Below, piece by piece: positions 6,001 to 8,950 of a stretch of 8,950 nt of DNA. The DNA comes from a virus. Its lineage: Duplodnaviria > Heunggongvirae > Uroviricota > Caudoviricetes. Made by a program: the position numbers. The stretch lies in the IMG/VR virus record IMGVR_UViG_2534681939_000020, positions 1-8,950 of that record. The stretch is one strand, 5' to 3'. The stretch's first letter is position 1. Each line of letters begins with the position of its first letter.

Positions 6001-8950
6001 TGATATAACGTTGTCTCGCCTCCTGATACGGATCACCCACAAAACCGAGGTCATCCGCCGCATACCCCAGTCGGACACGCTCTTTTTCTTCCCCTTTCAG
6101 TCTGGACAGGGCCAGCTCACGCTCTGTTTTTGTCAGGGCACTCTGCTGTTTATCATCCAGGGTGGCCTGCGGCAGCCGTAACGGTACATTCACCAGTCCC
6201 TGACGCTGCTGAAGCAGTTCATTCCCCAGCCCCAGCAGACGGTTGAATTCCGTATGCTGACCGTTTCATAACCAGCATGGACTGGTACACCTTATTCTGC
6301 TCTGCCGCCTGCTGACGAATTAACGCCACACGACGGTCTTCCAGCCCGGCAAGCACATCCTGAATGGACTGCGCTTTTTCCTGCATCTGTGCCAGACGGG
6401 ACTGCTCATCGGCAAGCTGCTCTGTTGCCTGAGAAAGCCCTTCCGTTACGGTCTTCACCGATGTCAGATGGTTTATCATGAATCCGTCACCGGTCGTCCA
6501 GCCCGGGTTCGCCAGAACATACTGATATCCTGCGATTTTTTCCTGCAGGGATTTCACCCGGCTGGCCTGTTCATCAATCAGCCGGTTCTGCTCTGTCAGC
6601 GCCGCCCGTGTTCGTCCTTCATTATCTGAGGCTTCAGGCAAAGACATTGACGGCGTTTTATGCGCGATTTCATCTATCGTCAGTGCATACTGGCGCGCAG
6701 ACTCCCTGGCCTGCTCCTGATTCTGGTACAGCGTGTACCATGCTGCAGCCCCCAGCATCACCAGTCCGGGTACGCCACCAACCAGCCCCAGCGCACCGCT
6801 CATCAGACGTGAGCCCACCGCCGTTGTACTGTTCAGCGCATTCTGGGCGGCGCTTCTGGCAGCAATATTTCTGTTCAGGCGTTCCTGTGTGGCCGCCAGA
6901 CGGGCCTCTGCAGCAATCTGCATCTCCGTCCCGCGGGCTGCCGCCACGGCCTGCTGAGCACGGTACACGGCTGCCCTTGCCCGCGCCGTGGCAATCTGCG
7001 TTCCCCTGAACTGTGCTTCCGCCAGTGCAACTTCATTACGTGCAGCCGTCACAAGTCCTGCCGTGGCAGACATCGCTCCGGAGGCCATATTGCCAAAGTA
7101 CCGGGCAACCCCGACGGCAACCAGCGCGCCCACGGCTGTTGCCACATTATCAATCTGTCCGGCAACACCGTTCAGCATGCCGGAGAGCGTTTTTGTCACC
7201 CCGCTGGCCTCATTCGCACCGCCCACCCAGGCCATAAAGGCGTTTTCCACCTTCGTGATACTACTGGAAACCGTTTCCGGCATGGCCGCATATTCATCAC
7301 GTAATATCCCCAGCTGGCTGATTAACGCGGGGACCACTTTATCCGCTGTCAGTTTTCCGTCATCCGCCATTGCCTTCAGATCTTTACGGGCCACGCCCAT
7401 ACCCGCAGCCAGTGCACGTACGATCCGGTCACCACTTTCATTGACCGAATTAAACTCCTCACCACGCAATACACCCTGCGCCAGCGCCTGACTGAACTGG
7501 GTGATCACCGAGCCCGCCTCTGCCGTACTGGTCACCGGAGATTTTCAGCCCTGTCGAAATGGCCTCCGTCACCTTCAGCACATCATCAGCACTGTAACCA
7601 TATTCACGCATTGAGGCGGCTGAGCGGGCAAACAGGGCCGCATTATCCGAAAATGCGGTGCCTGTCCGCTGGCTGATATCCATCAGCACTTTCTGTGATG
7701 ACGCAAATTCATCCGATGACTGCGACGCCTGTTTCAGACGGGCATTCACGGAGCTCCACTCATCCGCCAGCGAAATCAGGCGTCCGGTGGCAAAGGCACC
7801 GGCAAACGCACCGGTCATTCCGACAGCCGAAGCGCGGATTTCCGTCAACTGGCTGTGCAGCTCAGCCAGAGCCCGGCGCTGCTCCCTGGCTGCCGCAGCA
7901 GCCTGACGTCCGCCATTCTGCAGGGTCCGGTAATATTCACTGCCCATACGGGACGCCCGCTGGATCTCCGACTGGAATGACTGTGAATTTGCCGAAATTT
8001 TGATAATCAGTTCACGTAACGTCGCCATTCACCTTTCTCCGGGCAAAAAAAACCTGCCACAGCAGGTTTTCATCATTATTTATGACATTGCTGCAAGGCT
8101 CAGCGCGTCTTCCAGCGCCGCAAACGGATCCACCTCCGGCTTATCCTCATCCTCGCCCCAGCAGAGCATGGCGTCCTTCAGTGCAACATTCATCCCCTGT
8201 CGCCCCGAAAACCGCTTTCACGATCTGTGCATTACGGATATCCCCGCGCTCATCACCCAGCGGGGATACCCTGTCGAACTCCATCCACATCATCGCCTCG
8301 CTCGCACTCAGGCTGTGCCGCAGTTCGGATAAGGTGCGCCCCAGACGGAGCGCAAGTCGCATCAGAAAGCGAATTTCCGGGCGGGCTACTTTTTTCTGGC
8401 CGACTCTGCATCAGCGATCAGTTCCAGTGCCTGACGCAGCAACCGGGCATGTACCGGACCATAGACGGCCAGCACCTGCTCACGGTCGTCCGGAGTGAAC
8501 ACCCGTTGCAGGTCAGTATCACACAGGACATCGCAGAACAGCGTCACATCCGCTTCCAGGTTACGGCGGGTTTTCGCCACCACCGACAGGGTATCGTCAT
8601 CCTCTCCATCACCATTGAGCACTTCCTGCCACAGATACCAGGCCTCTGCCGAAGGCTCCCGCAGCACCACGCTGACATTTCTCCATTCCGGCACCTTCAC
8701 CGTTTTATGACGGAACCCCGACAGTCTGGCCAGCGCCAGTGTTTTCAGATCTTTTGCCATAAGCCTTATCCGCCCGCACCATTAACCGTTACCGTACACG
8801 CATCAGAGGTAATGCTCTGCGGCTGTTCTGCAGAATCCATTACCATGCAGGTATAAGCCCCCTTATCACCTGACTGCGCATTGGCTTTACTGAAAGTGTC
8901 AGTAGTCTGTCCCTCGACCGGCTGACCATCCTTCTTCCAGGCGTATTTAT

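Follow-up and report, generated by a model that had tools for sequence, protein, structure and literature searches.

A conserved terminator-like hairpin at the moron-slot position between the tail genes T and H of a defective Shiga-toxin-type prophage

The T|H junction and the other hairpins of the window

The DNA analyzed here (the window, 8,950 nucleotides) spans the tail genes from G to J only and contains neither Q nor pR'. It belongs to a defective prophage of the Shiga-toxin type, in which an IS fragment truncates L and 1-nt indels are present in K, H, and T. The tape-measure gene H is found in four ORF pieces, with 1-nt insertions at 7532, 6264, and 5193, while the closest genome has an intact H of 3243 nt. 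The gene names T and H of the initial annotation hold, as the Pfam matches of G, T, and H (Phage_TAC_1, Phage_tail_T, and TMP_3, respectively) and the gene order place the junction between the chaperone genes G/T and the tape-measure gene (Table 1).

The 51-nt gap between the T stop codon and the H start codon (T|H) consists of a hairpin and a ribosome-binding site, with no ORF. On the minus strand, which is the coding strand, the element reads AAAA-CCTGC-TGTG-GCAGG-TTTTTTTT (8070..8045). A terminator-like hairpin had been proposed at 8045-8070, and these limits bound the A-tract, the hairpin, and the T-run exactly; the eight T reported after the stem are likewise present on the coding strand. 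The core stem has 5 bp, four of them G-C, and is extended to 9–10 bp by A-U and G-U pairs reaching into the T-run. Its energy is –8.0 kcal/mol in the 6-bp form and –12.5 kcal/mol in the 10-bp form folded in isolation (z = –3.6 versus shuffles). As in Rho-independent terminators, the hairpin (CCUGC-UGUG-GCAGG in the RNA) is GC-rich, a U-rich tract of eight consecutive residues follows immediately 3' of the stem, and the element lies on the gene strand, starting 9 nt past the T stop codon (12 nt to the 6-bp stem). The distance to the H ribosome-binding site, first given as about 10 nt, is 4 nt from the end of the T-run and 12 nt from the stem. The plus strand also folds at this site (–11.4 kcal/mol), with TTTT after the stem. 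Prophage copies of this junction read ...CCTGCTGTGGCAGGTTTTTTTT or ...ACCGCTGAGGCGGTTTTTTT.

Table 1. Positions of the genes and sequence elements discussed in the text
Feature	Position	Strand	Basis and remarks
G, tail assembly chaperone gene	8386..8760	-	ORF; Pfam Phage_TAC_1, E 2e-61 (on a 99.7% identical copy)
Slippery A_AAA_AAG for the G-T frameshift	8395..8389	-	Sequence
T part of the G-T frameshift product	8080..8395	-	Stop TAA 8082..8080; Pfam Phage_tail_T, E 5e-19; 1-nt insertion at 8201 breaks T
A-tract AAAA	8070..8067	-	Sequence; can pair with the first T of the T-run, giving a stem of 9–10 bp
Terminator hairpin core	5' arm CCTGC 8066..8062, loop TGTG 8061..8058, 3' arm GCAGG 8057..8053	-	Sequence, folding, stem covariation in relatives
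T-run, eight T (U-tract)	8052..8045	-	Sequence
GCCC spacer, between T-run and ribosome-binding site		-	Sequence
H ribosome-binding site GGAGAAAGG and ATG	8040..8032 and 8028..8026	-	Sequence; conserved in relatives
H, tape-measure gene	4783..8028	-	Pfam TMP_3 at the N-terminus
Second terminator-like element, ACCCAGC-TTCG-GCTGGGT + TTTTATCA	2330..2355 (2355..2338 by scan)	-	-12.2 kcal/mol
Third terminator-like element, 10-bp stem ACAGGCACCC-TCCG-GGGTGCCTGT + TGTTTTCT	811..842 (842..819 by scan)	-	-20.8 kcal/mol

When the window was scanned on both strands for a stem of –7 kcal/mol or lower followed by at least 7 T in the next 8 bases, the T|H hairpin was the only match, and 100 dinucleotide-preserving shuffles gave a mean of 0.04 sites per shuffle under these stringent criteria. 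A loose consensus scan returned 17 terminator-like sites, versus 7.7 expected. The latter scan extends stems greedily into the T-run and leaves too few T; it finds the T|H hairpin on the plus strand only and misses altogether that of L077, one of the relatives described below, and the scan by energy and T count was used instead.

Two additional terminator-like elements had been noted, before K and before J; both are real and are on the coding strand. The first lies between the stop codon of an ant-like gene (2376..2374) and the K start codon (2320), and it is missing from BP-4795, a phage without ant. The second is found in the I-J gap, behind a 39-codon ORF (963..844); about 45 nt separate it from the J start codon (GTG at 768), and it is conserved in BP-4795. 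The proposal that such hairpins insulate moron genes fits these two well, because each follows inserted non-tail DNA (the ant/sar cassette before K and the 39-codon ORF before J) and the ant|K hairpin is absent without ant. It does not extend to the T|H hairpin, which insulates no cargo gene here, since neither a moron nor a promoter-like site lies upstream of it in the window. The P22-type ant/sar and I-J-gap moron terminators have the same layout as T|H (hairpin, T-rich tail, and next tail gene on the coding strand), but they sit behind inserts, and the one before K is gone when its insert is, whereas the T|H hairpin stays without any insert.

One more hairpin, inside M (4588..4569), was examined as a possible fourth internal terminator but was discarded: it coincides with the sequence for a conserved peptide, WHGGYRAFLW, and M genes with less than about 80% identity have lost it. 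Also excluded was the presence in the window, and especially in the I-J gap, of HnrS, a multicopy EHEC prophage sRNA located "within the late genes" (PMC13502914). The window contains no stretch of 15 nt complementary to the 3' end of mazF, and the longest shared word is 8–9 nt.

A search of the whole window against Rfam gave a single real match, the sar RNA (3254..3320), and none at T|H with E up to 1. No sigma-70-like site was found on the minus strand of the whole window by a simple scan, which is insensitive, as it found none in HK97 or L077 either. Upstream of the cargo genes of those two genomes, that null result carries little information, given the known expression of HK97 gene 15 from the prophage (PMC3594210). 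These searches bear on the idea that a small regulatory RNA made from the 3' region of T ends at T|H in an Hfq-type hairpin with a long U tail. The A-tract, hairpin, and U8 do resemble an Hfq-binding 3' module, and EHEC prophages are rich in sRNAs (PMC4104026, PMC13502914). Still, T|H has neither an Rfam match nor, by the simple scan, a promoter-like site upstream, and the published EHEC sRNA loci examined are near pR' or are given only as "within the late genes", with none assigned to T|H; those of the anti-sRNAs of Tree et al. are placed near pR' and not at T|H (PMC4104026). Such an RNA is therefore very unlikely at this site, as is a bidirectional terminator serving antisense transcripts, which the folding of the plus strand and its TTTT might suggest.

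Conservation of the hairpin upstream of homologous tape-measure genes

Since an alignment-based search of IMG/VR gave close relatives only, the diversity of the junction was obtained with a degenerate DNA pattern for MATLRELIIK together with a genome collection. At least 220 junctions were sampled, and the survey comprised, among the matches listed, 107 distinct junctions 5' of homologous tape-measure genes from E. coli, Klebsiella, Salmonella, Aeromonas, Pseudomonas, and others. The loci were chosen by one conserved tape-measure N-terminus, and the percentages are valid for that clade only. A junction was counted when a hairpin of –5 kcal/mol or lower was followed by at least 5 T in 8 bases.

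A hairpin and T-run were found at the same place, ending 16–25 nt before the ATG, in 98 of the 107 distinct junctions (among the matches listed), with differing stem sequences and with 5–8 T in the 8 bases after the stem, versus 9 of 1070 junction shuffles (0.8%); the 9 remaining junctions had no such element. The coding orientation passed in 98/107 junctions and the antisense orientation in 33/107 (among the matches listed), with the T-run always 3' on the coding strand. This bias, and the lack of conservation of the upstream A-tract, argue against the bidirectional terminator mentioned above. Among the matches listed, stem energies ranged from –6.2 to –15.6 kcal/mol, and the allele of this prophage (–8.0 kcal/mol, 6 bp) and that of YYZ-2008 (–6.2 kcal/mol) were the weakest. 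The word "strong", used for this hairpin in the initial annotation, is accordingly an overstatement.

Compensatory changes of the kind expected for an intrinsic terminator were evident in a MAFFT alignment of 57 junctions not selected for the hairpin. In it, 84.6% of the cells pair, versus 41–53% when the 3' partner is slid; all five stem pairs have changed on both sides; and the covariation score was reached in 0 of 500 shuffles. A loop-anchored alignment agrees. RNAalifold returned no consensus structure for the same 57 unselected junctions, in which stem lengths vary and some rows have no hairpin; when the alignment was tested with the named 5-bp helix, covariation was clear. A paired deletion, ACC[T]GC...GC[A]GGT, distinguishes the two E. 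coli alleles. Among 5426 complete E. coli genomes, 1245 contain a junction of this type, and a single genome may have as many as seven. Base-by-base reading of about 80 close copies from IMG/VR showed an intact stem and T-run, with the exception of one G-U change.

This comparison shows selection on the T|H hairpin. A chance hairpin without significance has a negligible probability: loose scans do give many terminator-like sites in any sequence, this window included, but the stringent scan found a single match where almost none is expected, the element recurs across related junctions far more often than in shuffles, and its stem covaries, so that the comparative data already refute this explanation.

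Named systems and the contents of the slot

The element is known in kind. In the HK97 and mEpX1 records, an element at the same position is annotated as the terminator of the gene-15 moron. The putative HK97 terminator lies between gp14 (T) and gp16 (H) and ends 12–18 nt before the start of the homologous tape-measure gene (MATLRELIIK...). Both elements are on the same strand and have a GC stem, a 4-nt loop, and eight T, followed by the ribosome-binding site. They differ in their stems (ACCCGCT/AGCGGGT in HK97 and CCTGC/GCAGG here) and in their neighborhood, since in HK97 the YebO-like gene 15 stands between T and the hairpin, whereas here the T stop codon is 12 nt from the 6-bp stem, with no gene or promoter-like site between. 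The T genes upstream have no detectable DNA similarity; the similarity to the HK97 group is confined to the beginning of H and extends upstream no farther than the H start codon.

With canonical E. coli Rho-independent terminators, such as lambda tR', the T|H element shares the GC-rich hairpin and U-tract, the upstream A-tract, and an intergenic position 3' of a stop codon on the coding strand. Unlike them, the putative terminator has a short core stem of 5 bp and is located in the interior of a long operon instead of at an operon end, with 4 nt between it and the following ribosome-binding site. Lambda and HK022 have the same order of G, T (–1 frameshift), and H, but no hairpin at T-H: the two genes share 8 nt in lambda, and in HK022 the T stop codon is followed after 19 nt by a tape-measure gene whose N-terminus is different. 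Since these phages and 9 of the 107 junctions manage without it, the element is dispensable.

Morons carry their own promoter and terminator, and gene 15 lies between the chaperone and tape-measure genes (PMC3594210). In this prophage, the interval from the T stop codon (8080) to the H start codon (8028) has no ORF, and hence no extra gene, and the simple sigma-70 scan, itself insensitive, found no promoter upstream. The terminator of the 3' end of an insert is nevertheless present, in the position relative to H that the annotated terminators of HK97 and mEpX1 occupy. In relatives, at least 14 unrelated clusters of cargo genes, with many different small genes for envelope proteins, occupy the space between T and the hairpin, and the terminator is kept in 65 of 66 such distinct junctions (among the matches listed). 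T is directly upstream in 37 distinct junctions, of which 33 keep the terminator, this one included (among the matches listed). The T genes next to these empty-slot terminators belong to three lineages, and the gaps in the main groups measure 1, 9, and 12 nt.

The slot of this prophage is empty either because its cargo was lost or because none ever arrived. Had it been lost, the hairpin might be a relic of a deleted moron gene, with no present function in this lineage. In two relatives (L050 and L077), nearly the same hairpin and a similar spacer of about 25 nt follow a PEGA-like lipoprotein gene, which is consistent with a relic and indicates that the hairpin goes with the H side. The weakest stems of the family (among the matches listed) are those of the two E. 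coli alleles with empty slots, a variant (L041) has a weakened stem, and two others (L092 and L207) keep the hairpin but have lost the T-run, so decay does happen. We nevertheless consider a relic unlikely, as terminators without cargo are found in three separate T lineages, in one of which the T stop codon and the hairpin are only 1 nt apart, leaving no scar; the paired deletion between the E. coli alleles is compensatory and preserves pairing; and the junction is both widespread in E. coli and almost invariant among the close IMG/VR copies.

Function and significance of the T|H element

The reading that we favor, and judge to be probably correct, is that T|H is a working Rho-independent terminator on the 5' side of the tape-measure gene, at the position of the HK97-type moron slot, and that Q-modified polymerase reads through it. 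The CCUGC-UGUG-GCAGG hairpin, extendable by A-U pairs, would form in the RNA while the polymerase transcribes the U8 tract, and ordinary polymerase would be released 16–20 nt before the H start codon, upstream of the H ribosome-binding site. Polymerases that started elsewhere than at the late promoter, for instance at cargo promoters or by stray initiation in the lysogen, would thereby be kept out of H-M-L-K-I-J, while the Q-modified late polymerase would pass the terminator during lytic growth. In lambda, tR' is read through by Q-modified polymerase, and it is established that the modified polymerase ignores weak terminators. Read-through at T|H is proposed by analogy with lambdoid phages; the Stx-converting phages, close relatives of this prophage, are reported to use Q (PMC7547250). 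For EHEC Sakai, Term-seq data exist (GSE143631; Sy et al. 2020, PMC7547250). As this copy of the prophage is defective, any role in the lytic cycle is moot for it.

Two observations weigh against a terminator. The stem is short, this allele and that of YYZ-2008 being the weakest in the family (among the matches listed), which could mean relaxed selection in empty slots; and nothing promoter-like that needs blocking lies upstream in the window.

A modest stem would also suit partial termination. The element might be an attenuator acting in the lytic cycle, or an mRNA-stability element that protects the 3' end of the head-V-G-T message from exonucleases after endonucleolytic cleavage; in either case, the upstream products needed in many copies (major tail protein, chaperone) would be made in larger amounts than H, M, L, K, I, and J, of which few copies are needed. 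In lambda, tail gene products are required in high or low copy number, and the gene order puts T|H exactly at the boundary between the two groups. It is also kept in 33 distinct junctions (among the matches listed) that have no cargo to insulate. We regard this explanation as rather doubtful: lambda and HK022 lack the element despite the same gene order and stoichiometric needs, as do the nine related junctions; a strictly conserved T-run is unneeded for a pure exonuclease block; and Q-modified polymerase would be expected to ignore a weak terminator.

Returning to the terminator that we favor, a further step may be taken, possible but tentative: that it is not a leftover but a resident, selectively maintained "docking" element on the 5' end of tape-measure genes, the empty slots being the ground state of a hot spot of cargo exchange in phages of Enterobacteriaceae, Aeromonas, and Pseudomonas. 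If this is true, the pre-installed insulator would make T|H a safe acceptor, at which promoter-bearing cargo, mostly lipoproteins and small membrane proteins, could be swapped without disturbing the expression of the tail genes.

For this window alone, an ordinary-looking predicted intrinsic terminator in a defective prophage carries little weight. The comparative result is more useful, as it shows the T|H junction of a widespread tail module to be a recurrent acceptor site for host-affecting cargo genes, with the terminator retained even when the slot is empty. This may aid the annotation of prophage cargo in EHEC and other pathogens, predicts which inserts in the tail region would be transcriptionally insulated in lysogens, and points to T|H as a natural safe-harbour site for the engineering of temperate phages.

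The tail gene cluster and its T–H hairpin

The window spans the tail region of a Stx-phage-type lambdoid prophage; the genes are encoded on the minus strand, in the order G, T, H, M, L, an ant-like gene, K, I, and J. A prophage of E. coli O157:H7 strain 493/89 matches the window at 99.7% identity, and many Stx-converting phages at 95–97%. In Pfam, G, T, and the N terminus of H belong to Phage_TAC_1, Phage_tail_T, and TMP_3, respectively. A slippery heptamer, A_AAA_AAG (8389–8395, minus strand), lies directly before the G stop codon (8388..8386) and is the expected −1 frameshift site for a G-T fusion. 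Going by how the near-identical 493/89 locus is annotated, an IS21-family transposase gene fragment truncates the minor tail gene L (about 3762–4450), and the prophage is therefore unable to make tails; this copy is defective. Five single-base indels (1826, 5193, 6264, 7532, and 8201), most of them outside homopolymer runs, also distinguish the window from NZ_CP038412, the closest complete genome (99.7%); they disrupt K, T, and, three times, H, leaving the latter in four ORF pieces. These indels reflect either genuine decay of a defective prophage or errors in the sequence; the T–H hairpin region carries none and is identical to that reference.

The terminator-like hairpin between the tail-chaperone gene T and the tape-measure gene H lies exactly where it was first seen, at 8045–8070 on the coding strand. 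Its 5-bp GC core can be extended to 9–10 bp by A-U and G-U pairs, with energies of −8.0 kcal/mol (6 bp) and −12.5 kcal/mol (extended form) and z = −3.6. When both strands of the 8950 bases were scanned for stem energies of −7 kcal/mol or lower and 7 or more T in the following 8 bases, this hairpin was the sole match, the mean in 100 dinucleotide-preserving shuffles being 0.04. The built-in consensus scan saw it on the plus strand only, because the stem was extended into the T-run.

Features of the T–H junction and of the other terminator-like sites in the window
Feature	Position	Strand	Basis or remark
T stop TAA	8082..8080	−	sequence reading
ATAATGATG	between T stop and A-tract	−	sequence reading
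A-tract AAAA	8070..8067	−	sequence reading
5' arm CCTGC	8066..8062	−	sequence reading
Loop TGTG	8061..8058	−	sequence reading
3' arm GCAGG	8057..8053	−	sequence reading
Eight T	8052..8045	−	sequence reading
GCCC, then H ribosome-binding site GGAGAAAGG	3' of T-run	−	sequence reading
H start ATG	8028	−	sequence reading
Hairpin inside M with TTTTTGTG	4569–4588	−	within conserved peptide WHGGYRAFLW
sar antisense RNA	3254–3320	+	Rfam RF00262, 66.7 bits vs gathering score 43
Sigma-70-like site GTGAAA-17-TATACT with TG	3218–3246	+	sole such site in whole window
ant-like gene	2374–3252	−	"P22AR C-terminal domain" or anti-repressor Ant annotation in relatives
Before-K hairpin	2355..2338	−	after P22-type ant gene
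39-codon ORF (MKINVMELFF...)	963..844	−	in I-J gap
Before-J hairpin	842..819	−	−20.8 kcal/mol; after 39-codon ORF

Other terminator-like hairpins in the window

Relaxing the scan to at least 6 T gave four matches, all on the coding strand: the T–H hairpin and those at 4588..4569 (in M), 2354..2339 (before K), and 842..819 (before J). The last two bear out the terminator-like elements that the initial annotation had placed before these genes. The M-internal hairpin was rejected as a terminator because it falls within a conserved peptide and disappears once M identity drops below about 80%; it probably arises incidentally from the coding sequence.

Within the tail cluster, the ant-like gene and sar make up a P22 immI-type cassette, in which sar overlaps the 5' end of the ant-like gene and the sigma-70-like site is just upstream of sar. 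Phage BP-4795 lacks ant, and the 13 nt between its L stop and K start contain no hairpin; therefore, the before-K terminator arrived with its moron. The I-J gap of the same phage is laid out like that of the window, with the 39-codon ORF and hairpins. In the window, this gap holds an insert of roughly 240 nt (769–1008), for which HnrS sRNA was rejected as the identity, and an opposite-facing, plus-strand terminator-like hairpin (980–996, then ATTTTTTT).

Conservation upstream of tape-measure genes

Tape-measure genes with the conserved N terminus MATLRELIIK... were gathered from annotated phages, IMG/VR, and one-genome-per-species contigs. They yielded at least 220 junctions, with at least 107 distinct 90-nt upstream regions, of one tape-measure clade, from E. 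coli, Klebsiella, Salmonella, Leclercia, Enterobacter, Pantoea, Brenneria, Phytobacter, Aeromonas, and Pseudomonas. In 98 of the 107 distinct junctions (among the matches listed, in this one clade), a hairpin with an energy of −5 kcal/mol or lower and 5 or more T in the following 8 bases ended 16–25 nt before the ATG; after shuffling, 9 of 1070 upstream regions had such a hairpin. The nine junctions without a full terminator, among the matches listed, precede genuine tape-measure genes. Read in antisense, only 33/107 of the listed junctions passed, and we consider a bidirectional terminator, or the 3' end of an sRNA, a very unlikely identity for the T–H element.

The stems are diverse in sequence (CCTGC/GCAGG, ACCGC/GCGGT, GCCCGC/GCGGGC, CCCCAC/GTGGGG, ACCCTC/GAGGGT, GGCTAC/GTAGCC, and others). 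In a MAFFT alignment of 57 junctions not chosen for a hairpin, 84.6% of the cells of a named 5-bp helix were paired, against 41–53% with the partner slid; two-sided changes occurred in all five pairs, and the covariation score was reached by none of 500 shuffles. A loop-anchored alignment (94% pairing, 6/6 pairs covarying) is supporting only, its rows having been picked by the hairpin finder. Close E. coli relatives have two alleles that differ by a compensatory paired deletion, ACC[T]GC...GC[A]GGT. Judged from these alignments, junction conservation and stem covariation place both the hairpin structure and the T-run under selection, and they rule out, for practical purposes, that the hairpin arose by chance.

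Of 5426 complete E. coli genomes, 1245 contain the same junction type; a single genome has it at up to 7 places, and 6 places are plasmid-borne. Every full-coverage match listed was annotated as tail assembly protein T followed by tape measure protein. The first roughly 30 codons of H (MATLRELIIKISANSQSFQSEI.RASRMG; window 7900–8028, related loci L003 and L006) are almost invariant from E. coli to Aeromonas phages, with a more diverged homologue in a Pseudomonas genome (L096). DNA similarity to HK97-group phages is confined to the start of H and ends at its start codon, which makes the T–H junction a sharp mosaic boundary. The records of HK97 and mEpX1 have a putative Rho-independent terminator annotated at this position, after gene 15. 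In lambda, T and H overlap, and HK022 has a 19-nt T-H gap and a different tape-measure N terminus, with no hairpin in either phage.

The cargo slot between T and H

Gene 15 of HK97, flanked by the tail chaperone and tape-measure genes, is the founding example of a moron (PMC3594210). When the ORFs ending just 5' of the hairpin were clustered for the 107 distinct junctions (among the matches listed), a cargo gene of at least 14 unrelated clusters was upstream in 66, with the terminator in 65; T was directly upstream in 37, with the terminator in 33; and another gene preceded the remaining four, none with the terminator. Cargo products include a YebO-like protein (HK97 gp15 type), a zinc-ribbon membrane protein, and a weak PEGA-like lipoprotein, while several further lipoproteins had no match in Pfam. 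Of the cargo proteins (loci L003–L006, L050, L077, L088–L095, and L106–L225), most are either small membrane proteins or lipoproteins whose lipobox is LAGC or LTGC, and several otherwise different ones share the C-terminal motif EEARKKAGL.

In two E. coli loci (L050 and L077) with an H 96% identical to that of the window, a lipoprotein gene comes first, then a hairpin almost the same as the window's and some 25 nt of similar spacer. Elsewhere, one hairpin-plus-spacer type was found after two different cargo families. These arrangements indicate that the hairpin belongs to the H side and that cargo is swapped upstream of it.

Empty-slot terminators come from three lineages of T, and in the main groups the hairpin lies 1, 9, or 12 nt after the T stop. 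Both empty-slot E. coli alleles have weak stems (−6.2 and −8.0 kcal/mol; family range, −6.2 to −15.6), which favors a functionless relic of a lost moron, a reading we nevertheless find quite doubtful. It is also unlikely, if somewhat less so, that the hairpin is a lytic-cycle attenuator or 3'-end stabilizer setting the ratio of V/G to H-J products. We favor, as reasonably likely, a working intrinsic terminator that is read through by Q-modified polymerase and insulates the cargo slot. From what is established for intrinsic terminators and lambdoid Q antitermination (PMC7547250), unmodified polymerase would be released at the hairpin, before the H ribosome-binding site, and Q-modified late polymerase would read through it; the hairpin would then be a fixed 3' boundary of the slot. 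The earlier observation is confirmed, and its proposal that antiterminated elements could insulate morons in this cluster is partly supported: the anatomy, position, strand bias, and selection of the T–H element are shown, and the before-K terminator arrived with a moron, but the T–H slot is empty here. Persistence of the T–H hairpin without cargo is the only unusual point among the window's terminator-like elements. More generally, the T–H junction is a conserved acceptor site for cargo, and its terminator is kept even when the slot is empty.
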